Shown here one piece after another: positions 1 to 33,621 of a stretch of 41,997 nucleotides of DNA; the first letter of the stretch is position 1, and each line of letters starts with the position of its first letter. Location: the IMG/VR virus record IMGVR_UViG_2698536372_000019, positions 1 to 41,997 of that record; one strand, given 5' to 3'. The DNA comes from a virus. Its lineage: Duplodnaviria > Heunggongvirae > Uroviricota > Caudoviricetes. Position numbers and translations under genes: made by a program. The notes beneath the pieces were generated by a model. That model was given only the letters and a program-made list of their open reading frames with translations. It made no database searches and was not told where the DNA came from.

Positions 1-681
1 CGGTTGCTGTTCTTTTTGCCGGAAGTAGCTGTCTTCCAGTTTTTCAAAGAATGCCCATGCCTGATCGGTTTCGAGCATTTTAGCGTGGCGGGCTGCGCCG
101 CGTTCTGTCCAGAGGGTGAGTGAGCGAACATTGCGAGCAATTTTTACAGAGTAGTTTAAAGCTACTCTGTGCTTCAACTCGCGCAATGATTCTCCTTCAA
201 CTTTGAAAAAGTGCTTCCCTTCAACAAAGCGTACTTTGTTCTCATGATGATTTTGGCGAATACGGATTGTTTCTGTCCCATACCCTCTCGCAAGAGTCTC
301 GGTTGTCACTACACGCACTCCCTGCCATTCCAGAACGGGAATTTCATCAGACTGATTCTGAACAACCACCAGCTCCGATTCCTGAACTGAAGGTGCATGA
401 ATTTTTTCTAATTTAACGTTATTTGCTTTCATTCTGTGTGCCTCCTTGCGTGCTTCGGCTGCGACGGTTGCGTAATTCAGATGACCCTGTTCGAGCAGGT
501 ATTCGCGGATATCAGACAACAGGATACGGTGAACCGCGTTCTTGTCCTTTCTCCGGTAAAGTTGTTTGGTGATCATGAAGTAGTTGGCAATAACGCCAGG
601 TATATCCCTGGTGCTGATACAGATTGTGTGCTGTTCAATTGCCTCGATCATCTCTTCACGGGTGACTAATGACTTTCTCAT
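1..681 (-). CDS. ant: anti-repressor Ant, middle-domain variant M2, 5' part (3' end runs off the window start)
   Basis: ATG at 681-679 preceded by GGAGGG; translation MRKSLVTREEMIEAIEQHT...; shared 85-aa N-terminal domain, then ORF6N/Bro-N-like middle ...GYGTETIRIRQNHHENKVRFVEGKHFF, identical to the copy at 17462-18182. Confidence 0.7.
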   Translation of the reverse strand, partial: MRKSLVTREEMIEAIEQHTICISTRDIPGVIANYFMITKQLYRRKDKNAVHRILLSDIREYLLEQGHLNYATVAAEARKEAHRMKANNVKLEKIHAPSVQESELVVVQNQSDEIPVLEWQGVRVVTTETLARGYGTETIRIRQNHHENKVRFVEGKHFFKVEGESLRELKHRVALNYSVKIARNVRSLTLWTERGAARHAKMLETDQAWAFFEKLEDSYFRQKEQQP

Positions 682-899
682 AGTCCCTCCTGAGCAGAAG
701 CGTTAACAGGGAGGCACCAGTAACTGAGAGAATTGCGTGAATCAGTGGAAAAACGGGCAGAGAAAATACATGGGGCGTCAGGAAGCTGAGAGCGAGCCTC
801 ATCTTCTGTTGGTGCAATAACGAAGTGATAGTGACGTTTTTGGCAGGAGTAAAAGCGCCAGATAAATTCAGGATGAGTTGGGGTAGGGATAGTAGCCAT
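678..899 (-). CDS. icd: Icd-like 73-aa protein; stop overlaps the ant start (ATGA)
   Basis: 73-codon ORF MATIPTPTHPEFIWRFYSCQKRHYHF... with AGGAGG RBS; size and position match P1 icd as I recall it; the 187-aa six-frame ORF is an upstream over-extension. Confidence 0.5.
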   Translation of the reverse strand: MATIPTPTHPEFIWRFYSCQKRHYHFVIAPTEDEARSQLPDAPCIFSARFSTDSRNSLSYWCLPVNASAQEGL

Positions 900-959
900 A
901 TTGGCAGCCTCCTTAGACGTTGGTATGTAACCACCGCAGAAGAGACCAATCTTGCTGGC

Positions 960-1035
960 GGTGGACTGTACGGAGTTGGCCTTACTGGCGTCCAAGGTAA
1001 CCAGCCTACCCGAAGGTAGCCCCATACAGCCCACC
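960..1035 (-). ncRNA. c4: c4-like antisense RNA, allele T1 (76 nt, structured)
   Basis: closing stem GGUGGGCUGUAUGG / CCGUACAGUCCACC, internal CUACC-UUCG-GGUAG hairpin; segment CCUUGGACG complementary (one G-U) to CGUCUAAGG overlapping the icd RBS at 911-919. Confidence 0.45.
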
Positions 1036-1217
1036 ATTGTAGAGGTGTGCGTGTACGCCGATACAAAAAAAGACGCGAGCGGCGTCTGTATCGCCTTAGA
1101 CTTAAGCGGGAGGCCAATCCCGGCACCCGTTTTAATGAGGTGCCTGATAAGCATAAACCGAAAATGCCTCAAGGCGCAAGAGGTCAGGCTCAATGTAACA
1201 TCGGTAGTTAAAAAACA

Positions 1218-1234
1218 CAATTTATTAGAGCAAA
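1218..1234 (-). promoter_or_regulatory. C1 operator-like site (Op51-like), 15/17 to ATTGCTCTAATAAATTT
   Basis: plus strand reads CAATTTATTAGAGCAAA. Confidence 0.6.
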
Positions 1235-1281
1235 TATTCATTCATTAAGCCATGCCAGAGCTTCATCAACCTGCGCTTCGT

Positions 1282-1282
1282 N
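1282..1282. other. assembly junction J1 (single n)
   Basis: n separates a pacB 3'-end fragment from the KilAC region of the next ant copy; reading frame is lost across it. Confidence 0.9.
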
Positions 1283-2247
1283 GCGTTGATGTATTGCTGG
1301 AACGGCACATTTTTACGTCCACCGGACGCTATCAGGATGCCGTTCTCCCGTAACCAGGCAAACAACGCGTTTTGCTTAAGCCCAACAACCTTTGCAAAAT
1401 TTCCAATCAGGATCCCCTTGGCCACTGATACCCGGTCGGCAAAATCGACTTTAGGGGCGGCGGCCACCAGCTGCTGATTTAGCTGGTGGGCTTTCTGTTC
1501 CAGAAGTTGCTTTTGTTCAGCCAGTTCGGCAGCCAGGCGCAGAGCTTCGGGAAGCGTCTGGGGGATTGCGATCGGTTGCTGTTCTTTTTGTCGGAAGTAG
1601 CTGTCTTCCAGTTTTTCAAAGAATGCCCACGCTTCATTTGTGTCCACGATCTTAGACATGCGTGCCGCTCCGCGCTCGGCCCAGAGAATTACCTGACTTG
1701 TATATTTGCTAACCAAGTGACTAATAGTCACTAGCCTTTTAAATTCCTTTAATTTTGAACCAGTTAAGAGATAGTAATGCTTACCTTCTTCAAAGCGATC
1801 GGGGTTGCGAGACAAATTTTTACGAATATTCGCTTCATCGGTCCCATACCCTTTAGCAAGAGTCTCAGTTGTCACTACACGCACTCCCAGCCATTCCAGA
1901 ACGGGAATTTCATCAGACTGATTCTGAACAACCACCAGCTCCGATTCCTGAACTGAAGGTGCATGAATTTTCTCTGATTTAACGTTAGTTGCTTTCATTC
2001 TGTGTGCCTCCTTGCGTGCTTCGGCTGCGACGGTTGCGTAATTCAGATGACCCTGTTCGAGCAGGTATTCGCGGATATCAGACAACAGGATACGGTGAAC
2101 CGCGTTCTTGTCCTTTCTCCGGTAAAGTTGTTTGGTGATCATGAAGTAGTTGGCAATAACGCCAGGTATATCCCTGGTGCTGATACAGATTGTGTGCTGT
2201 TCAATTGCCTCGATCATCTCTTCACGGGTGACTAATGACTTTCTCAT
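1283..2247 (-). CDS. ant: anti-repressor Ant, variant M1a, 3'-truncated at J1
   Basis: ATG 2247-2245 with GGAGGG RBS; N-terminal domain, ORF6N-like middle ...GYGTDEANIRKNLSRNPDRFEEGKHYYLL..., KilAC-like C-terminal region cut at ...NVPFQQYIN. Confidence 0.75.
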
Positions 2248-2465
2248 AGTCCCTCCTGAGCAGAAGCGTTAACAGGGAGGCACCAGTAACTGAGAGAATT
2301 GCGTGAATCAGTGGAAAAACGGGCAGAGAAAATACATGGGGCGTCAGGAAGCTGAGAGCGAGCCTCATCTTCTGTTGGTGCAATAACGAAGTGATAGTGA
2401 CGTTTTTGGCAGGAGTAAAAGCGCCAGATAAATTCAGGATGAGTTGGGGTAGGGATAGTAGCCAT
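2244..2465 (-). CDS. icd: Icd-like 73-aa protein (copy adjacent to pacB)
   Basis: identical to 678-899. Confidence 0.5.
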   Translation of the reverse strand: MATIPTPTHPEFIWRFYSCQKRHYHFVIAPTEDEARSQLPDAPCIFSARFSTDSRNSLSYWCLPVNASAQEGL

Positions 2466-2525
2466 ATTGGCAGCCTCCTTAGACGTTGGTATGTAACCAC
2501 CGCAGAAGAGACCAATCTTGCTGGC

Positions 2526-2601
2526 GGTGGACTGTACGGAGTTGGCCTTACTGGCGTCCAAGGTAACCAGCCTACCCGAAGGTAGCCCCATACAGCCCAC
2601 C
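2526..2601 (-). ncRNA. c4: c4-like antisense RNA, allele T1 (copy adjacent to pacB)
   Basis: identical to 960-1035. Confidence 0.45.
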
Positions 2602-2629
2602 ATTGTAGAGGTGTGCGTGTACGCCGATA

Positions 2630-2652
2630 CAAAAAAAGACGCGAGCGGCGTC
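2630..2652 (-). terminator. hairpin GACGCCGCUCGCGUC followed by U7 on the minus strand, between pacB and c4
   Basis: read on minus strand; a second copy sits at 1064-1086; candidate -10 TACAAT lies just downstream of it on the minus strand. Confidence 0.4.
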
Positions 2653-2783
2653 TGTATCGCCTTAGACTTAAGCGGGAGGCCAATCCCGGCACCCGTTTTA
2701 ATGAGGTGCCTGATAAGCATAAACCGAAAATGCCTCAAGGCGCAAGAGGTCAGGCTCAATGTAACATCGGTAGTTAAAAAACA

Positions 2784-2800
2784 CAATTTATTAGAGCAAA
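2784..2800 (-). promoter_or_regulatory. C1 operator-like site immediately after the pacB stop
   Basis: CAATTTATTAGAGCAAA, 15/17 to consensus. Confidence 0.6.
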
Positions 2801-2803
2801 TAT

Positions 2804-4288
2804 TCATTCATTAAGCCATGCCAGAGCTTCATCAACCTGCGCTTCGTCTTCGACGCTAAGCACTTCATCTTGGGGAACATAGTTCGCCAACATAGCGAAA
2901 CAATATGTATCCCAATGGTCCGGTGAGTGCAGGTTGAGTTTTTTCTTCATATCTTCCTTTGACATCACCTTCCATTGACCTGCGGAATTTATCCCTACCG
3001 GTATCTTTGATGCTTCCTCTATAGTCGCAGCCCCCTTATCAAGCCGCATACGCCCTGATTTTACAGCTTCTGCCGCCTGAATATTCGCGAAAGCGCGCAT
3101 ATCGAAATAAAGGCTTTTATCTTCACGGCTGTGCATCTTTTTACCCCAGCGGATACGCTGGACGGTAATACCATAGCGTTCGTACATCAGATCAGCCGTC
3201 GATTTCCCCAAGCCATCGCCATCAATAGCTATGGTTATGTTCGGGAACCGTTCTGGGTTACATTCTGCGAAAATCTTGGCGGCTAACTGCGTTTCTGTAA
3301 CGTCTGTGTATTCCAGCATACGATAGTTGATTACACGGCGTTTATTTCGCTGGCCGGACACCATCATGATATTAATAACGGACTTATCTCGTCCTGTGCC
3401 ACCAGCAACGTCAACACATGCAACCCAGCCCCATCCTTTGGCAATCTTGACCTTTCGCCGCGTCGCCCGCTCAACCTCATCACGACCAAGAAGAAAGCCA
3501 TCTTGAGATTTGGGAAATTCACCACGTACTTTGATCATGTACATGGGGTTATCACGACCGCCATACTCCGCAAGTTTTGCTCGTATAAATTTTGCATCTA
3601 CAAGCGGAGATTCTTCACTATTCAGTATTATCGCAGTAAACAATCCATCAGGATTTCCCGGGCGAATAGCTAGTCTGTGGTGTGAATCGTAGAAATAGCC
3701 TGAAGGTCGCGTAGGCTGGGAAAGAAGCAGAATACGGTTATCCTTACCGGTCAGCGCACCTGTTATCACACTGAATGCTTTATCACTCACACCCGACGCT
3801 TCGTCGATGATATACAAGAGATGATCGGCGTGTTCACCAGCCAACGCCTCCTCATTTCCGGGGCGACAGGACTTTATCAATATTGTCCAAACACCCTTGC
3901 CAGTCACCTCAAAAAAAGACGTTTCTGTAAGAATGAAATACTTCGACAACCACGGGAATCTGCTAACAGCAGTAGCCCAATTGCTCTTTATGTATTTGAA
4001 AATACCATCAAGGACTTGCTGTCTTTTGTTAGCGACCAGAATAACGCGAGCGCCGGGGAAAAACATGATGAAGAGTATTGCAATGATACTCGTCATATCC
4101 GACTTACCAGTACCATGGCCGGAGGTCACACTTGTCCAACTGCCGTCCTGCTGCGTGGACTCAATGATCTCATCCTGCTGCCAGGTTGGTGTCTTCCCAA
4201 ACAACACATCAGCGGCCGCAATCCAGTCATAACGATATAGCGCCACCAGCTCGCGCCAACGTGGGTCCGTTACGCAACTTCTGGCCAT
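2804..4288 (-). CDS. pacB: terminase large subunit PacB (494 aa)
   Basis: Walker [10 protein letters not shown]; length and position after pacA as in P1. Confidence 0.9.
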
Positions 4289-5481
4289 TAATCATCATCC
4301 CCGTACAGTTTGCGGGTAACTTCTTCGTCTTCCTCCTCGTTTTCGTCCAGATCCTGTTCAAGCCATGCTTCGTTTGATATGCCTTCCGCATCGACATCAC
4401 CATAACCACCTGTATCGACGATATCGGCAATTTCTTCTCTACGATGCTCAATCCACAATGCGGCATCAGCGCGGCGGCTGGCGGCCCGTTCTCGCGCAAC
4501 TTTGTCCAGATCTTCAAGAGAAGGGCCACCGACGGCTGTTTGCCTTTCCTCATCATCGGTATTGGTCTTAGGAGCACGCAGATCGGCTTTGATTTGCTCC
4601 AGCATCAGGGGCGGAACTTTCCCACCATGCGCCTCGATGAATTCAGCTGCTTCCAGCACTGACCAGTTATTTTCACGCTTTCGTTCGTATGCCAGCTTAA
4701 CAATGCCAGCTTGCCCCATAGATAAAGCGTGCTTTTCCGCCTCCCGGCTTTCTTTTCGATAGTTATTCCGGATGCTGTAAATGGTGTTGATCAGACTGCT
4801 TATCTGCGCGGAACAGCTGTTTAGCATGCTCGCGATACGGTATTCAGGCGGAGTACCTTCATCATCGTCTTTTTGCTGATCGCGCATTTCCTGCACCAGG
4901 CGAATACACGTATCCCTGGCGTTCTCCAGCATAAGGAGATGAGAAAGAGACTTTTCAAGAAGAGTGGTTTCCAGAACATCGGCCCCGGACCGACGCAACA
5001 TAGCGCGCGCGGCCTTCCGCGCTTCAACGTTATCTATCAGGTAATCGCCAGCTTCGAATTCAAAGCGTTCACCATCATCATCCAGGGTGTCGCGTTCCAG
5101 GCGATCACGTAAGGTCCGGTGGGCGCGGGTGATCACGTCATGATCATCAGAACGATCATTTATGCGCTTATTTTGGCGCTTCGCATTCTCGACTGCGGCA
5201 CTGACAACGGCATTAACCCTTTGTTTTTCCGTTATTTCAGCCGCAATGTGATCACCTGCATGTTGATCATTAGAGTGATCAATGATCATGCTTTTTAGTG
5301 GCTTCCTGACTGGCTTATTTGGCTTGCGGCTGTCCGCTGTCCTGGTGTCTTCTTTGAAGGCACGGAGATAACGACGTGCAGTATTAGGGTTAAGATTAAA
5401 CTCGGCGGCATACTGTGCGATGGTGTAACCACCATCTCGCGCCAGGCGAGCAAAATTCTTCTTGTGATCGTCCCAGGTCAC
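4288..5481 (-). CDS. pacA: terminase small subunit PacA (397 aa), contains the pac site
   Basis: [39 protein letters not shown]...; acidic C-terminus; hexamer clusters inside the gene. Confidence 0.9.
5102..5288. other. pac: P1-type pac site: two clusters of four TGATCA/TGATCG hexamers, each containing GATC
   Basis: hexamers at 5102, 5130, 5141, 5153 and 5249, 5264, 5276, 5283, separated by about 90 bp. Confidence 0.85.
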
Positions 5482-5516
5482 TTATGCTTCCTTTCGTAAA
5501 AACTCTTTTTGACGCG

Positions 5517-5536
5517 AGGGTAACGAAAGTCACATG
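5517..5536 (-). promoter_or_regulatory. late-promoter-like element upstream of pacA (CATGTGACT, 5 nt, TACCCT)
   Basis: same motif and spacing as the three CAAGTGACT sites on the plus strand. Confidence 0.45.
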
Positions 5537-5566
5537 TCAAAAGGCCCGGAACGGGCAAGCAATCAA

Positions 5567-6019
5567 TCAGATACGTGCGGATGTGGCATTACCGTAATGA
5601 CGGTGCTGACGGGCCACCTTATTGAAAAGTTGACGCGCCATTACCCAAGGCTGGTGCTCCCGGCGTTCCTTTTCGTCCTGCGTCATATAGAGTTCGTTCT
5701 GGAGTTTTTCATCAAACCGGCGCGGAGCGCGGCTACGGCGAAAGAATTCAGGATTCAGAGAGTGGATCTGAAATCTACGTGGGCGTGTACTGTCATCAAT
5801 CAAAACAGACGAATACTTAGACACAGCGATAGCCTTTAAGCGCAGATAAACATCGCGCTTATCGACATCCAGATGCGGGTATTCCTTTTCAAGAATTGCT
5901 GCGAGTTCTTTCGCTGATAGAAGAGATTTAGTGCGGATCATGTAATCCGCAATCTCGTACGATGTTATTCGTGAGTGATTTATTTCCATGAAGTGGCGTC
6001 CCTGCCAGTTAAGTAACAT
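5567..6019 (-). CDS. lpa: late promoter activator Lpa (gp10-like, about 150 aa)
   Basis: position directly upstream of pacA and size as in P1; exact start not verified. Confidence 0.7.
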   Translation of the reverse strand: MLLNWQGRHFMEINHSRITSYEIADYMIRTKSLLSAKELAAILEKEYPHLDVDKRDVYLRLKAIAVSKYSSVLIDDSTRPRRFQIHSLNPEFFRRSRAPRRFDEKLQNELYMTQDEKERREHQPWVMARQLFNKVARQHRHYGNATSARI

Positions 6020-6089
6020 CCTGTCACCTACTGATTAGCCCATGTCAACTAATCAACGTGGAATATAATACCCTCGATTAAAGAAATAG

Positions 6090-6106
6090 CAATACATTAG
6101 AGCAAT
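6090..6106 (-). promoter_or_regulatory. C1 operator-like site upstream of lpa (14/17)
   Basis: CAATACATTAGAGCAAT on plus strand. Confidence 0.45.
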
Positions 6107-6107
6107 T

Positions 6108-7151
6108 TTATCTAACACTCGACGAGTGACTTGTGATAGCGCCGACTCCAAGCGCGTAATCAAAGAACAATCGTTGATGCATCGCCAGCCTACCGTGCGT
6201 CTTCTCCCAATTATCGCGGTCACGCTCAATATCACGCTGGCATGACTGGCACAGAGGAATTGCGTAAATGTCATGCGCGCATAATCGACTATGACGAACG
6301 ATATAAGGCGTAATGTGAGCGCCAGCTCCCGCCGCTCCACACCCACAGCATGGACGGGAAGCAACAAAGTCCATGTACTCAGGTAATTTTAGCGATTGCA
6401 GTTTTGGTATTTTGAAATGCGCCATGCCAGGGTCGGAGTCAACATCCACAGGGCATACTTTTGCACGCATCGGCGCGGCGCGTTCTTCCATCATCTGAAC
6501 ATATGCTGTAGCGCGATCGTCATACGGGCGAATATCCGCCTCTTTCAGAGGTCCGCTATCCTGCGTTGCGGCTTTCATCTTATTTATTGATATACGGCAA
6601 ACTTCTTCCGGCATCAGGTGCATCATGTTGCGCATGAAAGCCCACCAGCACAGTTCCTGAATACTTAAATCATGGCCATCTGAAAGCCCCATTTCCTGAC
6701 GGGCGACATCCAGTATCCAGTTAACGCGATTATTATGCAGCGTTTCTTTCAGCTCATTAAAACCACGCATCCGGTAATGGTTATCGTGATGCCAGCACAA
6801 CAACACCGCGCTATTGTCTCGTTCAGCGTGGACAATATGGTTGTCACACCAGCTACGATCTGCGGCCTGGCATTGCCCCTCTTTCCTGCGCAACCACGCC
6901 ACCAGCGCGTCAATTCCACCAATACGGCGAAACAGTTCATCGCTGTTAAAAAACGGCTGCAACGCCTCATTTGTTGCCATGGTTTGCTCGGTAACAACGA
7001 GGCCGTCTTCCATGTGCTCGATTAACTCACGCGGCACCGGCTCCATAATAAATTTACGGCCAGCCTCCACCAGCTTTCTGACCTCCTGATCCACTTTGAA
7101 CGTGGCGAGGCCAAGCTCTTTCTGTACAAAGGGAGTAATTACGGCTTTCAC
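6108..7151 (-). CDS. hypothetical 347-aa protein with C-terminal Cys/His-rich motif (P1 pdcB position)
   Basis: long ORF; CCGCG...H...C..C..C motif near C-terminus. Confidence 0.55.
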
Positions 7152-7178
7152 ATCACACCTTTAATCACTGATTGGGCT

Positions 7179-7379
7179 TTATCTGCTGCCCGGCATTCTC
7201 TGTTTAAGCACTACCATTTCCTGACGGCATAACACAGCAATAGCGGTCCTGGCACCAATTTGCTTACCAACCAGGTATTGCTTTACCTCGCGGCGACTCA
7301 CGCCATCAAGAAGCATCTTTAACGCTTCACGGGACAATTTGTTGTATTTGCGTGCCATTAATCTACTCCGCAGAACCAT
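7179..7379 (-). CDS. small basic protein, possible HTH (P1 pdcA position)
   Basis: 59-66 aa ORF immediately downstream of doc. Confidence 0.4.
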
Positions 7380-7743
7380 ACAATCTACGTAACGTGTCGG
7401 CGACAGAAGATACAGATATCTCTCCGGTCGCAGCCCCTACGGTAAGGTCTGCCAGTTCAGGTGAATCAAATACCTGCACCCCGTTACGGCGTAGAAATAA
7501 CAGCGCACTGTTTAGCGCGGTACGCTTATTGGCATCATTGAATATATGCCCTCTCGCTGTAGCCACCAGGTAGGTGGCGGAGACTTCGAAAAGGTCGGTG
7601 ATCTCTTCGTAGGCAACTCTGGCCTGAACTCTCCCGATAATGGCCTCTGCCCTACCCGGATCTGACATTCCCGGCAGGCCGCCGTAGCGGTTTATATTCG
7701 CATCATGAAGCGCAATAAGTTCTTCCGGTGATATATGCCTCAT
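7363..7743 (-). CDS. doc: Doc toxin (Fic-fold kinase), 126 aa
   Basis: [17 protein letters not shown]...[10 protein letters not shown]... matches P1 Doc as I recall it, including the Doc-type Fic motif. Confidence 0.95.
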
Positions 7744-7964
7744 TATCGGTTAACCAGTTCCTTGTTGGTGGAGTCCAGGGTGTCAAACAGGGATGCAAAT
7801 TCAGCATCCAGCGCCGCTTTTTTGTAGGCTTCGAAAGTAGCCTTGCTGACAATTACTGCTGGCTCACGGCCTCTGCGGGTGATTTCAACCTCTTCCCCGG
7901 CTTCAACATTGTTGAGCACTTCAGAAAGGTTGCCACGCGCGGTACGGAAGTTAATGGATTGCAT
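7743..7964 (-). CDS. phd: Phd antitoxin, 73 aa; stop overlaps the doc start
   Basis: [73 protein letters not shown]. Confidence 0.95.
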
Positions 7965-8036
7965 AAACACCTCGTGTACTCGTTATGTGTACACAATTAT
8001 AAACTTCACAGGCATAAAGCACCAGCACTTTGCAGC

Positions 8037-8426
8037 TTAAATCACCGGACAATCATCAAATTCCCCACTTCGGGCATCATTGATGACATGAGTGATCACA
8101 CCAAAAACAGCATTACTACCCGTGTAACCATCGTCATCTACTGGTAACGCCTCTTTCTTCCCGGTGCTTAAATCCTCCAGGTGCTGGCGCGGATACTTCC
8201 TGTATCTCTTTATGCGATATTCACCCTCCATAGCGCACACAAGCAGAGAACCATCAACCGGAGTAAGCGAGGAATCAACCACCAGCAAAGCACCCTGCAA
8301 TATTCCCTCACGGTGATGGCTATCAGCTGCCCGCATGAAGTAGGTTGCTGATGGATGTCTAATTATCTGCTGATCAAGAGAAATTCGGCTTTCAACATAA
8401 TCCGCCGCAGGAGAAGGGAAACCCAT
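8037..8426 (-). CDS. humD: HumD, UmuD'-like SOS mutagenesis protein (129 aa)
   Basis: S24 LexA/UmuD-like C-terminal domain; LexA box about 20 bp upstream. Confidence 0.8.
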   Translation of the reverse strand: MGFPSPAADYVESRISLDQQIIRHPSATYFMRAADSHHREGILQGALLVVDSSLTPVDGSLLVCAMEGEYRIKRYRKYPRQHLEDLSTGKKEALPVDDDGYTGSNAVFGVITHVINDARSGEFDDCPVI

Positions 8427-8446
8427 AGCGTTTTACCTCAAAAATA

Positions 8447-8462
8447 CTGTTTATCTGTACAG
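8447..8462. promoter_or_regulatory. LexA box CTGTTTATCTGTACAG (perfect CTGT-N8-ACAG)
   Basis: read directly; sits between divergent humD and the 8601 ORF. Confidence 0.8.
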
Positions 8463-8600
8463 TATACATTAAAGAAGCACCTTTGGTGCAAACGCGTTAT
8501 GTACATCAACCACCGCTGATGATTTTTGTGCGCTTTGCTACTATTCATCACCGCGGGATCAGCGTAACCTCGTTGCCAATCAGTTAATAAGGAATTAGCT

Positions 8601-8936
8601 ATGCCTAATCGCATTCCTCTCGATCCTGTATTGCCCAAAAATTTTGACTGCACTCCTAACGAGAAACGCTCTAAAGCTCAGCTGGACGCCTGGTGGGACC
8701 ATCCCTATGGGGTTACAGAACATGACGGGAAAATTGTTGTTTATTGTCTGAATGGTGGCGCGTGGGACCGTCCATCCGTGCTTGGTTTGGCAAATAACTA
8801 TGATGAAGCCTGTGAACTTGCCGAAAGACAGCAGGCAAGCTGGGTAAAAACACGGTCTGAACCGACATTCATGTTTTCAAAAGAACCGCCATTTATACTG
8901 GCGAGGATGCCGCAGCGACCGGATCATCAACAATAA
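8601..8936 (+). CDS. hypothetical 111-aa protein divergent from humD (possibly LexA-regulated)
   Basis: RBS TAAGGAA before ATG. Confidence 0.55.
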   Translation: MPNRIPLDPVLPKNFDCTPNEKRSKAQLDAWWDHPYGVTEHDGKIVVYCLNGGAWDRPSVLGLANNYDEACELAERQQASWVKTRSEPTFMFSKEPPFILARMPQRPDHQQ

Positions 8937-8966
8937 ATTGTTGCTGAATTTTCCTCAAGGGATGAG

Positions 8967-9182
8967 ATGAATCTCTTCTCATTAAAGCAGGAAGAAAGGG
9001 ATCGCGTCGAAGTGTCTCCAACTCTCGACCACAACCGGATGAACCTGGCCCAACTCGCCTGGTACAGCAAAGAATTAGAGATGTCTATTGCCCGACTTGA
9101 AAACGAAAAAGCCGCTATCCAAGCCCAGCATGAAGTAGTTCTGAACCGGATTAGAGAAATGCAAAACGATAATAGAGGCTAA
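8967..9182 (+). CDS. hypothetical 71-aa coiled-coil protein
   Basis: RBS AAGGGA; no similarity to theta/HolE that I can see. Confidence 0.4.
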   Translation: MNLFSLKQEERDRVEVSPTLDHNRMNLAQLAWYSKELEMSIARLENEKAAIQAQHEVVLNRIREMQNDNRG

Positions 9183-9242
9183 ATCGAGGTAGAAAACACA
9201 TTGTTTAAGGCCACTAATTGTGGCCTCAAAGGGGAGAGATGC

Positions 9243-9767
9243 TTATTGGCTATGGCTAAAAATCAAATGAGACACTTCATGTGGTTGTAGCTCGTCAAGA
9301 TCCGGGGCCACAAAACCTTTTCCGAAAGACTTCACAAGTAATTCACCAGCCGCATCATTGTCACCTATTACACGAAAGTCATACGGCAGCATCGCAAGTT
9401 GACGGCGTAATCCTGCGGAGAAAGTCGAACCTAACAGCGCCCACGAATTGCCGCCCGCGTTGTGTACAGCTGCGCTCTTAAAAATAGACTCAGTTATCCA
9501 TATTGGGCCATCTTTTAAAGGAAGATAGGTTCCCCAAAGTAACTGTCTGCCATGTGATCGCGTGAAATACCGGGCCATCTTCGGATTGCTATGCTGCTTA
9601 GGAGCACCTGGTCTATATGTCTGATACCCAGCCAACATCCCATCAAACCTGTATAGAGGGAATGTAACTACTCCTTCACTTTCATCGATCCACTGTCTAT
9701 ATGGGTGTATATCATGGCGGTAGTTACGAGTTAGCAAATGAGCTTCCAGCTTTCCAAATTTTGTCAT
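9243..9767 (-). CDS. Toprim-like protein (174 aa)
   Basis: ITESIF and VIGDNDAAGE (DxD) motifs; ATG overlaps the stop of the upstream gene (ATGA). Confidence 0.45.
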   Translation of the reverse strand: MTKFGKLEAHLLTRNYRHDIHPYRQWIDESEGVVTFPLYRFDGMLAGYQTYRPGAPKQHSNPKMARYFTRSHGRQLLWGTYLPLKDGPIWITESIFKSAAVHNAGGNSWALLGSTFSAGLRRQLAMLPYDFRVIGDNDAAGELLVKSFGKGFVAPDLDELQPHEVSHLIFSHSQ

Positions 9768-10069
9768 ATTCCGTTCTTCCTGCATACTGGGCATGTGTTC
9801 TCTGTGAAATATGGGAAACTATTATCCAGCTCATCTACCCACTGTTTATGGTCGAAGCAGAAAAATATCTCCCACGGCATTCCATATTCTTCCATCCATA
9901 GGCGGATCTGCATTTCTATTGGAATCGGCGGTATTGCAGACACCATATCAACAGGATAACAGTTCAGACGACGTTCCAGTTCTTCTACTCTCTTCTGGAG
10001 ATGAAATATCCGATCCAGATGCACACGCCGCTCCCGTGCCATTTTAAAATAAAGCTCGCCGGTCATCAT
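9764..10069 (-). CDS. small coiled-coil/zinc-ribbon protein, paralog A (101 aa)
   Basis: C-terminal W..F.C.DH..W.DELD.SFPYF.E..CP.CR shared with 10069-10353; TAATG coupling. Confidence 0.5.
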   Translation of the reverse strand: MMTGELYFKMARERRVHLDRIFHLQKRVEELERRLNCYPVDMVSAIPPIPIEMQIRLWMEEYGMPWEIFFCFDHKQWVDELDNSFPYFTENTCPVCRKNGI

Positions 10070-10353
10070 TAACTCCTACATTCAGGGCAAGAGTTCCCTT
10101 CCGCAAAATAGGGGAAACTGCTATCAAGCTCATCACACCATCTGCGATGGTCGTAGCACCAAAACGCCTCCCACGGTGCACGGAAATACTTCATCCACCA
10201 GGACACTCGATCAGGTATATCTGCTGGTGGCAGCTCTTCTGGCAATAATTTGCCTGATAATTCCCTTTCCGCCCGCGCCAGCATTCCTTTTAGACTCGCA
10301 TTCTCTTTTTCAAGAATATCTATGCGCGCCTGTAACTCAGCTTTCGTTGGCAT
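10069..10353 (-). CDS. small coiled-coil/zinc-ribbon protein, paralog B (94 aa from internal Met)
   Basis: ...WEAFWCYDHRRWCDELDSSFPYFAEGNSCPECRS; the first 27 codons of the six-frame ORF are probably not translated. Confidence 0.5.
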   Translation of the reverse strand: MPTKAELQARIDILEKENASLKGMLARAERELSGKLLPEELPPADIPDRVSWWMKYFRAPWEAFWCYDHRRWCDELDSSFPYFAEGNSCPECRS

Positions 10354-10540
10354 GGTCCGCCTCATGCTTTTCAGCCACCAGCGGCAATAAAGCCCTGGCC
10401 ATCTTATGAACCAACAGAGCATCGATAATGCCAAGCGTATGCCCCGGCTTAATGTTTAATGCCGCCTCAAGGTGACACCTTTCCAGGTCACTTTTCTCGG
10501 CTTGTTTATGATGGTCTGGCGTAATAACGTCGCCCAAAAC
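10337..10540 (-). CDS. 3' end of a gene truncated by the N-run
   Basis: ...PGHTLGIIDALLVHKMARALLPLVAEKHEADHANES; upstream part lost in the gap. Confidence 0.35.
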   Translation of the reverse strand, partial: VLGDVITPDHHKQAEKSDLERCHLEAALNIKPGHTLGIIDALLVHKMARALLPLVAEKHEADHANES

Positions 10541-10557
10541 NNNNNNNNNNNNNNNNN
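10541..10557. other. assembly gap J2 (17 N)
   Basis: N-run placed 3 codons before the expected ant stop. Confidence 0.95.
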
Positions 10558-11582
10558 GCTACTGGTTTTAACAAACCAGCATCAAGTAGCTTGCGAGTTA
10601 ACCACTGCTGGCCTTTACCCGTTAATTGGGGCGTCAGCCGTATCTGGTAACCATCTTCATCATCCAGCACCACTTCTTTCACCGTGAAATACCCGGCGTT
10701 GATGTACTGCTGGAACGGCACATTTTTACGTCCACCGGACGCTATCAGGATGCCGTTCCCCCGTAACCAGGCAAACAACGCGTTTTGCTTAAGCCCAACA
10801 ACCTTTGCAAAATTTCCAATCAGGATCCCCTTGGCCCCTGATACCCGGTCGGCAAAATCGACTTTAGGGGCGGCGGCCACCAGCTGTTGTTCCAACTGCA
10901 TTTTCTGTTCTGCCAACTCGGCAGCCAGGCGCAGTGCTTCGGGGAGTGTTTGGGGGATCGCTGGAGAAGCCGTGCTAGCCTGCTGCAATTCTTCCAGTTT
11001 GTCGATCAGCGAACGGCGGACCGCTTTTGACTCGCGCGCGGCGACTCGCAGGGCTTGTTTGAAAGTCATGGTGATAATGTCTATGTTTGCACCATTTTTG
11101 CGACCTACACTTTTTGTGTAGGTCTCACCTTCAAGCTCATCTACAACCTTCTCAATAAACTTATTATTTCTTACTAATGGTTCCCCACATAACTTACGCG
11201 CCTCATTAACCATCTTTAACAGCGTCTGGCTGTCGATTGTGTCTCCGGTGTTGGGGATAGCATCCATGACCGGTGCTGGTGTGGTTGCTGTCAAAGGCTT
11301 TGTAACGACAACATCTGGTTTGCTTGCTTTCATTCTGTGTGCCTCCTTGCGTGCTTCGGCTGCGACGGTTGCGTAATTCAGATGACCCTGTTCGAGCAGG
11401 TATTCGCGGATATCAGACAACAGGATACGGTGAACCGCGTTCTTGTCCTTTCTCCGGTAAAGTTGTTTGGTGATCATGAAGTAGTTGGCAATAACGCCTG
11501 GTATATCCCTGGTGCTGATACAGGCAGTGTGCTGTTCAATTGCCTCGATCATCTCTTCACGGGTGACTAATGACGTTCTCAT
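10558..11582 (-). CDS. ant: anti-repressor Ant, variant M3 (AntA-like middle domain), nearly complete
   Basis: N-terminal MRTSLVTREEMIEAIEQHTACIST..., distinct middle ...LLKMVNEARKLCGEPLVRNNKFIEKV..., KilAC-like C-terminus ...LTRKLLDAGLLKPV. Confidence 0.75.
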
Positions 11583-11800
11583 AGCCCCTCCTGAACAGAA
11601 GCGTTAACAGGGAGGCACCAGTAACTGAGAGAATTGCGCGAGTCAGTAGAAAAGCGTGCGGAGAAAATGCAGGGAGCATCCGGAAGCTGAGAACGTGCCT
11701 CATCTTCTGTTGGTGCGATAACGAAGTGATAGTGGCGTTTCTGGCAGGAGTAAAAGCGCCAGATAAATTCAGGGCGTGCGCAAGGATTGGCATTAACCAT
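11579..11800 (-). CDS. icd: Icd-like 73-aa protein, allele T2 (MVNANPCARPEF...)
   Basis: 73 codons, overlaps ant start; N-terminus differs from the T1 allele. Confidence 0.45.
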   Translation of the reverse strand: MVNANPCARPEFIWRFYSCQKRHYHFVIAPTEDEARSQLPDAPCIFSARFSTDSRNSLSYWCLPVNASVQEGL

Positions 11801-12050
11801 AGTTACGGCCTCACAATCAGGTTTAACAACCTGCTACCCGCTGTCNNNTCAGTAGAAAAGCGTGCGGAGAAAATGCAGGGAGCATCCGGAAGCTGAGAAC
11901 GTGCCTCATCTTCTGTCGGTGCAATAACGAAGTGATAGTGGCGTTTCTGGCAGGAGTAAAAGCGCCAGATAAATTCAGGGCGTGCGCAAGGATTGGCATT
12001 AACCATAGTTACGGCCTCACAATCAGGTTTAACAACCTGCTACCCGCTGC
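11640..12050. repeat. about 206-bp unit present twice, separated by NNN (11846-11848)
   Basis: direct duplication of the icd-prime region flanking an N-run (J3); likely assembly artefact. Confidence 0.7.
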
Positions 12051-12127: not shown

Positions 12128-12306
12128 CCCACCATAATTTGGGCGTAACGCGGTTTTACGGACACAAAAATACCGCAATATCGGATATCTGCGGCTGTCC
12201 GCACAATCATTCAGGCTGCTAAACCCGGTCGCAGAATTTGCTACGACGTAGGAACTATAAGCCTGAACAACAGGAAGATCAATAGTCTGGCGTCCAATAG
12301 TAGTTT

Positions 12307-12600: not shown

Positions 12601-13242
12601 ATGGATAAGAAAATATGCGTTGTTTCGATGAGCGTCGGCAAACCGGCGTCAATGACTGCTGCATGGATCAACAATGAGCTGATCATGGCTGAGCGGACCA
12701 GCTACCCTGAACGCCGCCGCGATATGGAACTCCAGCTTCTGCGCGAATTGCGAGAAAAAGAGGAAAAGGGTTTTATCGTGCTGGTGGAAGAGGAAAACAG
12801 CTTTATTACCGGTCGAGTTGGCCAGCGTGTAAGGTTGCGCGATCCCTTCATGAACGGCAGGCCGGTACTAATTGAAGCAATGCAGATTTACAAGGAGCTG
12901 GAACGCCAGAAAGCGATCAAGTTACCGCGCAAGGAATCCGGCAAATACATCCTCCACCAAAGCATCTTCGATTCCGAACACGATAAAAAAGGCGATGAAT
13001 TTTTCAACATCAACTGGAGCGAAATAACAACAGAGCATGTTCTGACATTGTTATGCTGTTTCGCAACGGAATACAACAATGTTGCCAGCGCCGACTACAT
13101 CAGGGCAATGGCTGGAGAAGTTGAGGCCCGCCAGGAACCATCGTTACTAAGACCTCTGATTAACATAATTCACGGAACCCAAACACTGGCGCAAAAACAA
13201 GTACCACAAGGGGAATTGACGGGTAAAGGTAATTATCTCTGA
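12601..13242 (+). CDS. hypothetical late protein (213 aa)
   Basis: ATG with AGGGGGAG RBS; the six-frame ORF start at 12454 is rejected. Confidence 0.55.
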   Translation: MDKKICVVSMSVGKPASMTAAWINNELIMAERTSYPERRRDMELQLLRELREKEEKGFIVLVEEENSFITGRVGQRVRLRDPFMNGRPVLIEAMQIYKELERQKAIKLPRKESGKYILHQSIFDSEHDKKGDEFFNINWSEITTEHVLTLLCCFATEYNNVASADYIRAMAGEVEARQEPSLLRPLINIIHGTQTLAQKQVPQGELTGKGNYL

Positions 13243-13281
13243 AAGATGCCCGGCGATAGACCGGGCAAAAGGGCGGAAAGT

Positions 13282-16639: not shown

Positions 16640-17055
16640 TCACTCAGCCGCTACTGGTTTTAACAAACCAGCATCAAGTAGCTTGCGAGTTAACCACTGC
16701 TGGCCTTTACCCGTTAATTGGGGCGTCAGCCGTATCTGGTAACCATCTTCATCATCCAGCACCACTTCTTTCACCGTGAAATACCCGGCGTTGATGTACT
16801 GCTGGAACGGCACATTTTTACGTCCACCGGACGCTATCAGGATGCCGTTCCCCCGTAACCAGGCAAACAACGCGTTTTGCTTAAGCCCAACAACCTTTGC
16901 AAAATTTCCAATCAGGATCCCCTTAGCCACTGATACCCGGTCGGCAAAATCGACCTTAGGGGCGGCGGCCACCAGCTGCTGATTTAGCTGGTGGGCTTTC
17001 TGTTCCAGAAGTTGCTTTTGTTCAGCCAGTTCGGCAGCCAGGCGCAGAGCTTCGG
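16640..17055 (-). CDS. ant: Ant C-terminal (KilAC-like) fragment, 5'-truncated by the N-run
   Basis: ...AAPKVDFADRVSVAKGILIGNFAKVVGLKQNALFAWLR...KPVAAE stop. Confidence 0.6.
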
Positions 17056-17066
17056 NNNNNNNNNNN
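17056..17066. other. assembly gap J4 (11 N)
   Basis: sequence on the two sides is unrelated. Confidence 0.95.
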
Positions 17067-17220
17067 GCTGAACATTTTGTGATGAATGCAACGGAGGAGG
17101 AAGCGCGGCGAGGGCTTACTAGAGTGATGGCGGAATTTGGCGAACTCCTGGGTAAGGTAAACAATGCCCTTTCAATCAGTTCAGCAAGATCCAAAGCGTT
17201 AACAGCTTCCATGATGAAAT
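17067..17220 (+). pseudogene. orphan 3' end of an unidentified gene (...MAEFGELLGKVNNALSISSARSKALTASMMK stop)
   Basis: open frame enters from the N-run and ends at TAA 17218-17220. Confidence 0.3.
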
Positions 17221-17221
17221 A

Positions 17222-17247
17222 AAAAAGCCTGGCAAGGAGCCAGGCTG
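17222..17247 (-). terminator. hairpin AGCCUGG-CUCCUUG-CCAGGCU followed by a U-run on the minus strand
   Basis: read directly. Confidence 0.5.
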
Positions 17248-17352
17248 CACAAAAGAGCGGGTTTGTATTCCGCATCCAATCAATCAAGAAAGAGTATAGC
17301 ACACAGGTACTGAAGTGAAAAAATGTGATTCTCGATTAACAAAATATCTACC

Positions 17353-17376
17353 ATTGCTCTAATTGATTGCTATAAT
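17353..17376 (+). promoter_or_regulatory. C1 operator-like site (14/17) overlapping a TATAAT -10
   Basis: ATTGCTCTAATTGATTG then CTATAAT. Confidence 0.45.
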
Positions 17377-17436
17377 TGAGCCGCAGTTTTTGTCAACTAC
17401 GAAGACGTTGCCATTATAGACTCCGTGACATCATTG

Positions 17437-17460
17437 GCGGCCGAAAGGCCGCCTTTTTTA
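17437..17460 (+). terminator. GGCGGCCGAAAGGCCGCC + T6
   Basis: same hairpin as at 16610. Confidence 0.6.
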
Positions 17461-17461
17461 A

Positions 17462-18182
17462 TCATTCAGCCGCCACCGGTTTTAACAAGCCAGCTTCGAG
17501 CAGTTTACGCGTCAACCACTGCTGGCCTTTACCCGTTAATTGGGGCGTCAGCCGTATCTGGTAACCATCTTCATCATCCAGCACCACTTCTTTCACCGTG
17601 AAATACCCGGCGTTGATGTATTGCTGGAACGGCACATTTTTACGTCCACCGGACGCTATCAGGATGCCGTTCTCCCGTAACCAGGCAAACAACGCGTTTT
17701 GCTTAAGCCCAACAACCTTTGCAAAATTTCCAATCAGGATCCCCTTGGCCACTGATACCCGGTCGGCAAAATCGACTTTAGGGGCGGCGGCCACCAGCTG
17801 CTGATTTAGCTGGTGGGCTTTCTGTTCCAGAAGTTGCTTTTGTTCAGCCAGTTCGGCAGCCAGGCGCAGAGCTTCTGGAAGCGTCTGGGGGATTGCAACC
17901 GGTTGCTGTTCTTTTTGCCGGAAGTAGCTGTCTTCCAGTTTTTCAAAGAATGCCCATGCCTGATCGGTTTCGAGCATTTTAGCGTGGCGGGCTGCGCCGC
18001 GTTCTGTCCAGAGGGTGAGTGAGCGAACATTGCGAGCAATTTTTACAGAGTAGTTTAAAGCTACTCTGTGCTTCAACTCGCGCAATGATTCTCCTTCAAC
18101 TTTGAAAAAGTGCTTCCCTTCAACAAAGCGTACTTTGTTCTCATGATGATTTTGGCGAATACGGATTGTTTCTGTCCCATAC
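17462..18182 (-). CDS. ant: anti-repressor Ant, variant M2, 3' part (5'-truncated at J5)
   Basis: ...TETIRIRQNHHENKVRFVEGKHFFKVEGESLRELKH... through the KilAC-like domain to the stop; overlaps in sequence with the 5' part at 1-290. Confidence 0.7.
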
Positions 18183-18183: not shown

Positions 18184-19227
18184 ACCCGTTAATTGGGGCG
18201 TCAGCCGTATCTGGTAACCATCTTCATCATCCAGCACCACTTCTTTCACCGTGAAATACCCGGCGTTGATGTACTGCTGGAACGGCACATTTTTACGTCC
18301 ACCGGACGCTATCAGGATGCCGTTCCCCCGTAACCAGGCAAACAACGCGTTTTGCTTAAGCCCAACAACCTTTGCAAAATTTCCAATCAGGATCCCCTTA
18401 GCCACTGATACCCGGTCGGCAAAATCGACCTTAGGGGCGGCGGCCACCAGCTGCTGATTTAGCTGGTGGGCTTTCTGTTCCAGAAGTTGCTTTTGTTCAG
18501 CCAGCTCGGCAGCCAGGCGCAGAGCTTCGGGAAGCGTCTGAGGGATTGCGATCGGTTGCTGTTCTTTTTGCCGGAAGTAGCTGTCTTCCAGTTTTTCAAA
18601 GAATGCCCATGCCTGATCGGTTTCGATCATTTTAGCGTGGCGGGCTGCGCCGCGTTCCGTCCAGAGAGTGAGGTTTCTGGCGTTCTTACCAACAGAGTTA
18701 CTAAAAGTAACTCTGTTCTTAAATTCCTTTAATTTTGAACCAGTTAAAAGAAAGTAGTGTTTACCTTCTTCAAAGCGATCGGAGTTGCAAGACAAATTTT
18801 TACGAATATTGCCTTCATCGGTTCCGTACCCCTTAGCAAGAGTTTCGGTTGTTACGACACGTACTCCCTGCCATTCCAGAACGGGAATTTCATCAGACTG
18901 ATTCTGAACAACCACCATCTCCGATTCCTGAACTGAAGGTGCATGAATTTTTTCTGATTTAACGTTAGTTGCTTTCATTCTGTGTGCCTCCTTGCGTGCT
19001 TCGGCTGCGACGGTTGCGTAATTCAGATGACCCTGTTCGAGCAGGTATTCGCGGATATCAGACAACAGGATACGGTGAACCGCGTTCTTGTCCTTTCTCC
19101 GGTAAAGTTGTTTGGTGATCATGAAGTAGTTGGCAATAACGCCTGGTATATCCCTGGTGCTGATACAGGCAGTGTGCTGTTCAATTGCCTCGATCATCTC
19201 TTCACGGGTGACTAATGACGTTCTCAT
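18184..19227 (-). CDS. ant: anti-repressor Ant, variant M1b, 3'-truncated at J5
   Basis: MRTSLVTREEMIEAIEQHTACIST...; ORF6N-like middle; KilAC-like region ends at ...LTPQLTG. Confidence 0.75.
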
Positions 19228-19445
19228 AGCCCCTCCTGAACAGAAGCGTTAACAGGGAGGCACCAGTAACTGAGAGAATTGCGCGAGTCAGTAGAAAAGC
19301 GTGCGGAGAAAATGCAGGGAGCATCCGGAAGCTGAGAACGTGCCTCATCTTCTGTCGGTGCAATAACGAAGTGATAGTGGCGTTTCTGGCAGGAGTAAAA
19401 GCGCCAGATAAATTCTTGGCGTGCGCAAGGATTGGCATTAACCAT
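19224..19445 (-). CDS. icd: Icd-like 73-aa protein, allele T3
   Basis: MVNANPCARQEF...; overlaps ant start. Confidence 0.45.
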   Translation of the reverse strand: MVNANPCARQEFIWRFYSCQKRHYHFVIAPTEDEARSQLPDAPCIFSARFSTDSRNSLSYWCLPVNASVQEGL

Positions 19446-19495
19446 AGTTACGGCCTCATGTACAGGTTTAACAACCTGCTACCCGCTGTCAAACA

Positions 19496-19572: not shown

Positions 19573-19745
19573 ATAATTCGGGCGTAACGTGGTTTACGGA
19601 CACAAAAATACCGCAATATCGGATATCTGCGGTTGTCCGCATGTACATTCAGGCTGTCAAACCCGGTCGCAGAATTTACTACGACGTAGGAACTATAAGC
19701 CTGAACAACAGGAAGATCAATAGTCTGGCGTTCGATGGTAGTTTA

Positions 19746-32199: not shown

Positions 32200-32420
32200 T
32201 TATCCACATTATCCACTGGATAGATCCAATAATCAGGTCCATACAGATCCCAATTAGATCCATATAGATCCCTGATCGTTGCAGGCCGCGCCACGTCTGG
32301 CTTAGAAGTGTATCGCGATGTGTGCTGGAGGGAAAACGATGTGTGCTGGAGGGATAAAAATGTGTGCTGACGGGTTGCTAATGTGTGCTGGCGGGATATA
32401 GGATGTGTGCTGACGGGAAA
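32200..32420. repeat. oriR: oriR: two DnaA boxes (TTATCCACA, TTATCCACT), GATC cluster, five direct 19-bp iterons GATGTGTGCTGGAGGGAAA
   Basis: iterons at 32316, 32337, 32358, 32379, 32401; five GATC sites at 32220-32280. Confidence 0.9.
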
Positions 32421-32476
32421 GCCTGGGTAGTTATCACCACTTATAAAAACTATCCACACAATTCGGAAAAAGTAAT

Positions 32477-33337: not shown

Positions 33338-33621
33338 GTGTGTGCTGGAGGGAAACCGCATTAAAAAGATGTGTGCTGCCGGGAAGGCTTGTCCAATTTC
33401 CTGTTTTTGATGTGCGCTGGAGGGGGACGCCCCTCAGTTTGCCCAGACTTTCCCTCCAGCACACATCTGTCCATCCGCTTTTCCCTCCAGTGCACATGTA
33501 ATTCTCTGCCTTTCCCTCCAGCACACATATTTGATACCAGCGATCCCTCCACAGCACATAATTCAATGCGACTTCCCTCTATCGCACATCTTAGACTTTT
33601 ATTCTCCCTCCAGCACACATC
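33336..33621. repeat. incA: incA: nine iterons (three direct, six inverted)
   Basis: ATGTGTGCTGGAGGGAA-type repeats in both orientations. Confidence 0.85.

Follow-up and report, generated by a model that had tools for sequence, protein, structure and literature searches.

We found that the two c4-icd-ant modules written in tandem at the start of the window (the whole 41,997-nt stretch of DNA analysed) appear, with good support from sequence comparison, to be an assembly artefact, two contigs having been joined across a gap of one base, rather than a new arrangement of genes. The first-pass annotation had proposed two alleles of one locus laid end to end rather than a real tandem duplication. 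That the layout is two versions placed in series and not a tandem agrees with the N at the joint, the non-collinear flanks, the breaks at other N runs, the absence of a spanning match and a single-copy leader; that the two versions are alleles of one locus is not established, since relatives carry 3–5 paralogs per molecule, six pieces of ant with four distinct middle cassettes are present in the window, and the copies branch at the edge of a repeat.

When we compared the window with itself, we found that positions 423-1281 equal 1989-2847 (offset 1566; 859 nt, 0 mismatches), an exact length that rules out a chance origin. The duplication had been given as 669-1281 and 2235-2847 (613 nt), which is correct but understated, as the identity continues for another 246 nt and takes in the first 86 ant codons. 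At the same offset, 8 sites differ in 272-422, and 1-271 is strongly diverged. The block was said to contain the pacB 3' end, an operator, c4, icd and the start of ant; each piece was recovered when checked, and an isrK-like RNA that had not been listed lies among them:

2804-4288, minus strand: pacB (large terminase subunit), full-length ORF, annotated as pacB or terminase in P1, P7 and relatives.
1238-1281, minus strand: stray last 44 nt of pacB including its stop, identical to 2804-2847; right-hand end of the short contig 1-1281.
1218-1234, minus strand: C1 operator-like site, copy A (TTTGCTCTAATAAATTG; 2 mismatches to the consensus ATTGCTCTAATAAATTT).
2784-2800, minus strand: C1 operator-like site, copy B (17-mer; 2 mismatches to ATTGCTCTAATAAATTT).
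1066-1143, minus strand: isrK-like leader RNA, copy A (Rfam RF01394, 60.8 bits).
2632-2709, minus strand: isrK-like leader RNA, copy B (Rfam RF01394).
954-1041, minus strand: c4 antisense RNA, copy A (Rfam RF01695, 75.9 bits against a gathering score of 45, E = 3e-13, full length).
2520-2607, minus strand: c4 antisense RNA, copy B (Rfam RF01695, 75.9 bits, full length).
678-899, minus strand: icd copy A, 73 aa (ORF frame; the corresponding CDS of a relative with 99.84% identity across 1-1281 is annotated 'Icd-like' by PGAP).
2244-2465, minus strand: icd copy B, identical to 678-899.

The operator-like 17-mers are predicted sites, and 8 of them match ATTGCTCTAATAAATTT in the window where 0.01 would be expected. 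Copy A of the isrK-like RNA ends in a terminator-like hairpin (stem 1071-1087). The icd coordinates were taken from the PGAP annotation of the 99.84% relative, as no Pfam model matches icd; the stop of copy A overlaps the ant ATG (679-681).

The ant genes start at 681 (copy A) and 2247 (copy B), and their bodies differ only in the core of the ORF6N domain, at about aa 133–206. The peptides quoted for the two middle variants were both found, GYGTETIRIRQNHHENKVRFVEGKHFF (M2) in the translation of 1-681 and GYGTDEANIRKNLSRNPDRFEEGKHYYLL (M1a) in the ORF 1225-2247:

1-681, minus strand: ant copy A, codons 1-227, with the M2 cassette, running off the start of the window (from the translation; 1-1281 is 99.84% identical to the pacB-site module of CP027443.1).
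1283-2247, minus strand: ant copy B, codons 1-321, with the M1a cassette and lacking the last ~49 codons (part of the ORF 1225-2247).
1550-1971, minus strand: core of the M1a cassette, an ORF6N domain (Pfam ORF6N; matches in other plasmids).
1989-2163, minus strand: 175-nt exact repeat, with further copies at 423-597, 11324-11498 and 18969-19143.

Copy A continues at 17462-18182, and the M2 Ant reconstructed in this way matches both PF03374 (KilAC, E = 8e-32) and PF10543 (ORF6N, E = 2.5e-19). The M1a Ant also matches both models, with its KilAC domain cut at profile position 67 of 108; the ant stop of relatives falls 148 nt past the end at 1283, and the 18 aa with which the ORF 1225-2247 seems to end come from reading on into the stray piece of pacB. 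The 175-nt repeat is common to all four full ant copies in the window, and the point at which M2 and M1a part (422/423, equivalent to 1988/1989) coincides exactly with the first base beyond it.

The joint between the two copies falls on a single N, and a separate contig further along the window carries the remainder of the M2 gene:

1282, no strand: single N, a contig join in the scaffold, whose flanks are separated by 1.57 kb in CP027443.1, where their order is reversed.
17067-18182, minus strand: separate contig with the rest of the M2 ant followed by the flank usually found downstream of the module at the cre/mat site; it overlaps 1-283 exactly.

As had been noted, the n at 1282 is a lone one inside ant; it stands between codon 321 of copy B and the pacB 3' fragment on the copy A side. 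It is the sole ambiguous base in the first 10 kb and sits exactly on the novel joint, so the uninterrupted sequence across the joint expected of a tandem duplication is not present. All five N runs in the window lie at discontinuities, and three of the five have unmerged overlaps: 17900-18182 equals 1-283 (283 nt, 100%), 11643-11843 matches 11849-12049 (201 nt, 99%) and 16709-17055 matches 18184-18530 (347 nt, 99.7%). The site thus has what marks a scaffold join, namely non-collinear flanks, a contig that duplicates its neighbour and the same signature at other gaps. Unusual joins at repeats appear to recur in this scaffold, because the contig 17067-18182 links M2 to the flank of a different site, a combination with no contiguous match above 95% in any complete genome. 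Serial unmerged contigs (haplotigs or repeat arms) share with the window the joint at an N, a contig end that duplicates the interior of its neighbour, a branch at a repeat boundary and recurrence at other N runs, and from these likenesses we infer that the layout belongs to this class, with unmerged alternative contigs written in series by a scaffolder or gap closer.

A genuine tandem, in which a truncated ant would run into 44 nt left over from pacB and the n would be a miscalled base, is very improbable. The sequence as written is unbroken save for one base and the ORF 1225-2247 reads through the joint, but the only ambiguous base of the first 10 kb lies on that joint, the other N runs are all breaks, and a fresh duplication would have left identical ant bodies, yet the ORF6N cores differ. 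Nor is the joint found elsewhere: its flanks have matches in 678 complete E. coli genomes and in 680 PLSDB plasmids, not one of which runs across the joint, its exact patterns had 0 matches in three public contig collections (genome, viral and metagenome), and the flanks of N1282 are adjacent in no reference compared. A 48-mer specific to the second contig (1283-10540) had no exact match either, while searches for proteins identical to PacB and to a 183-aa backbone protein gave many relatives. The pacB-specific leader (880-1239) is essentially single-copy per replicon, because its matches fall at 477 places in 473 records; at least 80% of it is covered in 133 records from 131 genomes.

Several candidates for a natural counterpart were set aside. 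Two complete plasmids in which spans of ~3 kb looked like tandems proved to carry insertion sequences in or beside ant (IS1203 in pO111_2 and ISSen4 in the plasmid of strain G5). In seven plasmids, at most 282 nt separate the end of pacB from the C-terminal region of ant; the one fetched, pPK8217-139kb, has a module deletion and not the window's joint, and the hit geometry of the remaining six is identical to it. Terminal redundancy or pac-site effects were also rejected, because the break coincides with the pacB 3' end, whereas pac is in pacA.

To place the module, we compared the window with complete relatives. The module lies between pacB and c1 (pacB stop, module, convergent c1), as in RCS47 and pO111_2, and an extra ant module inserted there has been noted in the literature (PMC6906374). 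RCS47, pTZ20_1P, pO111_2 and CP027443.1 carry this module in the same position and with the same gene content; copy A is 99.7–99.84% identical to theirs and the pacB-side backbone 99.72%. These plasmids have one copy at the site, whereas the window has a second copy only across an N. The P1/P7 immI region (Op51, c4, icd, ant1/ant2) resembles the window's module in its C1 operator-like site, its c4 RNA, an icd that overlaps the ant start and a KilAC-bearing Ant. The earlier label, pacB-operator-c4-icd, was apt; the locus, however, is not the canonical P1 immI, which stands beside kilA-repL, and no kilA-repL follows the pacB-c1 module. In P1 and P7, nothing lies between pacB and c1, and they match the window query in the pacB part only. 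The canonical immI copy of the relatives is elsewhere, and only ~81% identical over 10558-11843, the sole part of the window that aligns to it. The leader of the pacB-c1 module has an isrK-like element in contrast to the a1/b1 element of the window's other modules, to which it is only ~63% alignable.

We found that complete relatives hold their 3–5 paralogous c4-icd-ant modules spread over five sites (three modules in CP027443.1, four in CP013030.1 and four in the STEC799 plasmid), and that paralogs within one plasmid share exact runs of 113–239 nt. At the pacB site, the M2 cassette is present in CP027443.1, CP027575.1 and pO111_2; positions 1-1281 are 99.84% identical to the CP027443.1 module across operator, c4, icd and M2, and the backbone 2241-10540 is 99.72% identical to pO111_2. 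The M1a cassette occupies the pacB site at 98.3–98.5% identity in pHeN100_02 and pBS15R-A_1, whose M1a core has 0 mismatches over 1550-1971. The same core has 0 mismatches over 1592-1958 in the STEC799 plasmid, there at the cre/mat site; this plasmid was tried as a model with M2 at pacB and M1a at cre/mat, but it carries another cassette at pacB. In complete plasmids M1a is found next to a diverged type of leader and pacB, whereas M1a contiguous with the pO111-type leader reaches at best 98.1% in 5,426 complete genomes, with none above. Of the two versions, M2 alone is matched almost exactly (99.84%) by a natural sequence.

Taken together, these comparisons are consistent with a repeat-induced alternative path within one multi-module plasmid, our leading reading, to which we give about an even chance. 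The window would be a scaffold assembled from short reads, derived from a P1-like phage-plasmid of the pO111_2 / STEC type, and 1-1281 a short alternative contig that the scaffolder, being unable to merge it, set next to the 9.3-kb contig 1283-10540 with a gap of one base. The element beneath this is an additional immI-like immunity module lying between pacB and c1, with its parts in the order predicted C1-repressible operator/promoter, isrK-like leader, c4 antisense RNA, icd and ant. If it works as P1 immI does, the c4 RNA would block translation of icd and ant, and once the block is lifted Ant would inactivate the C1 repressor. Paralogs of the module share long exact stretches on either side of a swappable ORF6N middle cassette, and the assembler may have followed the 175-nt exact repeat at the ant start into two different cassettes, so that only one of the two pacB-ant joins would be native. 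The native cassette is probably M2, because the closest backbones carry M2 at the pacB site. A path crossing into a paralog would fit the data equally well as a second allele, and several points tell against the repeat-path reading. It is not certain that either pacB-ant join is wrong. Recombination in nature would likewise be expected to have its breakpoints within the conserved block, and a branch at the edge of the repeat is therefore, taken alone, no proof of assembly error. Different complete plasmids have either M2 or an M1a cassette at the pacB site, so each of the two could be a genuine allele; the icd blocks 11324-11845 and 18969-19490, a near-duplicate pair (98.5%) with different ant bodies, could equally be a second allele pair from two plasmids.

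The main rival to the repeat-path reading, possible though we hold it only tentatively, is that the sample contained two P1-like plasmids or phages, or was a mixed culture or metagenome, with near-identical backbones and different pacB-c1 ant cassettes; the assembler would have collapsed the backbone and retained both divergent arms, which the scaffolder then put in series. Both cassettes are natural at the pacB site, M2 in three plasmids and M1a in two, and both contigs bear a pacB-specific 409-nt leader that is in no other module of the window. Scaffolders usually handle alternative arms by placing a single N at a negative gap, and the second pair of icd blocks would be explained in the same way. 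Co-residence may occur, although it looks uncommon (133 leader records in 131 genomes). However, the rest of the 42-kb scaffold has no other duplicated backbone or allelic bubbles, and the exact haplotype of M1a with the pO111-type leader is absent from complete genomes. The M2 contig, moreover, runs into the flank of another site and not into c1, so that at least one repeat-driven mis-join, or an inversion, is needed even with two plasmids.

An inversion or gene conversion between ant paralogs of one plasmid could also swap the pacB-side cassette, in which case both joins would be real and belong to different isomers of a structurally mixed population. The modules at the pacB/c1 and cre/mat sites are mutually inverted and bracket a ~4-kb c1-cre segment, and the M2 contig connects the pacB leader to the cre-side flank, as an inversion would give. 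Identical cassette cores occupy different sites in different plasmids, and the occupied sites vary among closed plasmids; the pro-ant and icd-dbn junctions are present in some (e.g. CP013030.1) and absent from CP027443.1. Nevertheless, recombination between repeats of 175–270 nt is normally too rare in culture to reach abundance at the level of assembly, no reciprocal product was seen in the window, and plain mis-assembly yields the same pattern, so we regard such isomers as unlikely. More doubtful still is that both pacB-linked ant bodies are real and coexist in one population in which paralog recombination swaps the ORF6N cassette and would thereby switch immunity specificity, a proposal that draws on the identical cores at different sites and backbones in closed plasmids.

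The main value of these findings is a caution: read at face value, the scaffold would imply that the immunity operon is duplicated and that a truncated Ant-PacB read-through ORF exists, but neither feature belongs in an annotation. As many as five c4-icd-ant modules, predicted to be under C1 control and with ORF6N cassettes that can be exchanged, are carried by P1-like plasmids of the STEC type, which makes the locus systematically unassemblable from short reads. The extra modules are already known from the literature, and the multi-module locus is worth study in closed genomes.

In the window, a P1-like phage-plasmid scaffold, we found that positions 423–1281 are identical to 1989–2847 (859 nt, offset 1566). 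The first-pass annotation had recorded this duplicate, and the identical stretch is longer than the one it gave; both peptides it quoted were also found in the window translations. At the same offset, 272–422 differs from its counterpart at 8 sites and 1–271 is strongly diverged. The two copies of the module are copy A (1–1281), whose ant gene carries the middle cassette M2, and copy B (from 1283), whose ant carries M1a. On the minus strand, the order is pacA, pacB and then the c4-icd-ant module:

4288–5481, minus strand: pacA
2804–4288, minus strand: pacB
1238–1281 (copy A) and 2804–2847 (copy B): last 44 nt of pacB
1218–1234 (copy A) and 2784–2800 (copy B): C1 operator-like 17-mer with 2 mismatches
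1066–1143 (copy A) and 2632–2709 (copy B): isrK-like RNA (Rfam)
954–1041 (copy A) and 2520–2607 (copy B): C4 antisense RNA (75.9 bits)
678–899 (copy A) and 2244–2465 (copy B): icd
from 681 (copy A) and from 2247 (copy B): first 86 codons of ant
10558–11845, 16640–17055, 17462–18182 and 18184–19445: further ant/icd pieces

The window holds 8 C1 operator-like 17-mers where 0.01 are expected. The two Ant proteins are identical at residues 1–86 and again from approximately residue 207 onwards, as far as the shorter protein extends, and their differences are essentially confined to the ORF6N domain core (approximately residues 133–206). The single N at 1282 follows ant codon 321 of copy B, and in relatives the ant stop lies 148 nt past the 1283 end of that copy; the ORF at 1225–2247 and its 18-aa tail result from artefactual read-through. 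Copy B also has a private C at 1972 within otherwise conserved sequence, where copy A and the copy beginning at 18184 have T. All five reference loci compared differ from copy B at this base, and none of the three public collections contains the surrounding 48-mer; the C reflects a sequencing error or a private SNP.

N runs at 1282, 10541–10557, 11846–11848, 17056–17066 and 18183 split the window into six segments. In CP027443.1, the flanks of the N at 1282 lie 1.57 kb apart and in reversed order relative to the window, and each of the other four N runs is likewise a discontinuity. Some segments overlap yet were left unmerged (17900–18182 with 1–283, 100%; 11643–11843 with 11849–12049, 99%; 16709–17055 with 18184–18530, 99.7%). 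When we searched with a 206-nt query across 1282, the joint was spanned in none of the 678 complete E. coli genomes and 680 PLSDB plasmids with flank matches, and exact-pattern scans of three contig collections gave no match to it. The pacB-site-specific leader (880–1239) was found at 477 places in 473 records and is therefore essentially single-copy per replicon. Because the joint is an N with misordered flanks, all N runs are breaks, no match spans the joint and the leader is essentially single-copy, the arrangement as it stands in the scaffold is not a real feature. The tandem layout is almost certainly an artefact, as the first-pass annotation had proposed in arguing against a real tandem duplication, which we regard as highly improbable.

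Two records with matches spanning about 3 kb were rejected as tandems, as they carry IS insertions. Plasmids in which the pacB end lies near the ant C-terminal region were also considered as carriers of the joint; the one fetched, pPK8217-139kb, proved to have a deletion of the pacB-site module; what remains of ant there is 133 C-terminal codons, which overlap the pacB stop by 16 nt. The rest of this group, six other large plasmids, shares its match geometry.

STEC-type P1-like plasmids (CP027443.1, CP013030.1, CP173116.1 and NC_013370.1) carry 3–5 copies of the c4-icd-ant module. Five sites recur (immI, pacB|c1, cre-hyp|mat, lyz|pro and dbn|gene 5), and their occupancy varies by plasmid. Three modules are present in CP027443.1 (pacB|c1, cre-hyp|mat and immI) and four in CP013030.1 (immI, lyz|pro, pacB|c1 and dbn|gene 5); the STEC799 plasmid likewise has four, and some closed records have five module places. 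Within a single plasmid, paralogs have exact stretches of 113–239 nt in common. The window contains six ant pieces, among which four different middle cassettes are represented. The M3 variant (10962–11323) is unmatched in the rest of the window, and the cassette at approximately 18640–18950 combines an M1-like first half with an M2-like second half. All four full ant copies have in common an exact 175-nt block (1989–2163 in copy B coordinates); copies A and B diverge at the first base past it and are identical again over 266 nt in their ant C-terminal parts. Each cassette is thus flanked on both sides by repeats that exceed the typical length of short reads or k-mers.

Judged from sequence comparison, a repeat-driven alternative path through one multi-module plasmid has about an even chance of explaining the two copies. 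The near-exact natural counterparts of copy A favour such a cross-join: its leader and M2 are 99.84% identical to CP027443.1 and 99.7–100% identical to pO111_2. The copy B combination, M1a with a pO111-type leader, has a best match of 98.1% among 5,426 complete genomes. Over its core, M1a is 100% identical both to the cassette found at the pacB site of pHeN100_02, whose pacB and leader are of a diverged type (only about 90% identical to the window), and to the one at cre|mat in the STEC799 plasmid. This identity of 1550–1971 at different sites on diverged backbones points to putative cassette exchange via the conserved flanks. The contig that continues M2 (17067–18182) leads into the cre|mat flank, not c1, a combination with no contiguous match above 95% in any complete genome; unusual repeat-edge joins therefore recur in the scaffold.

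The first-pass annotation had read the copies as two alleles of one locus. Two alleles, or two plasmids, are one of two live explanations, less probable than the repeat-driven cross-join, which we rank first. Natural plasmids carry both M2 and M1a-type cassettes at the pacB site, and a second pair, 11324–11845 and 18969–19490, parallels copies A and B in having a near-identical icd block (98.5%, 387 nt exact) with different ant bodies, which fits two co-sampled plasmids. We found no allelic backbone duplication in the rest of the 42 kb, which favours the cross-join. A mixed population of recombination isomers is unlikely. Only one aspect merits pursuit, best in closed genomes: the ant modules of STEC P1-like plasmids, which are multi-copy and swap cassettes.

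Nothing separates pacB from c1 in P1 and P7, whereas RCS47, pTZ20_1P, pO111_2 and many STEC plasmids have an icd-ant insert there, as in the window; this insert has been noted in P1-like plasmids (PMC6906374). The pacB-site module shares all sequence features of the P1 immI operon (an operator, c4, an icd that overlaps ant, and an antirepressor with KilAC) but differs in location and in its leader, which has an isrK-like element instead of the a1/b1 of the window's other modules and is about 63% alignable to theirs. By analogy with P1, c4 RNA would hold off icd/ant translation and Ant would inactivate C1. The Rfam isrK family is a Gifsy-1-type Hfq-binding RNA; the window's other two module leaders (12208–12260 and 19646–19698) match the c4-a1b1 target element, not isrK. 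A C1 operator-like site is present in each of the window's three module leaders, those on the pacB, mat and dbn sides, and c4 genes differ considerably among module types.

The backbone at 2241–10540 is 99.72% identical to pO111_2 (E. coli O111:H- 11128), and other segments match pO111_2 or plasmids of other STEC strains at 98.5–99.7% identity. At the 17 N of 10541–10557, backbone (pO111_2 position 85571) meets an ant gene beginning 10 nt short of its stop; none of the references fetched carries an ant module at this position, and the join is probably another mis-scaffold. The region at approximately 32300–33795 has no megablast alignment to pO111_2, CP027443.1 or CP013030.1; in these plasmids a RepB-family or "replication initiation protein" gene occupies the corresponding position. 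The ORF of this region at 32477–33337 resembles, by eye, RepA of the P1/IncY type, and the region looks like a candidate replicon swap. At 13197–13275, between the mat-like gene and the portal gene, the window lacks the type III restriction-modification genes (res/mod), which occupy about 5 kb in CP027443.1. A tRNA cluster lies at 22471–24735, and at 25391–25418 two C1 operator matches, one of them perfect, overlap in opposite orientation as a palindromic pair.
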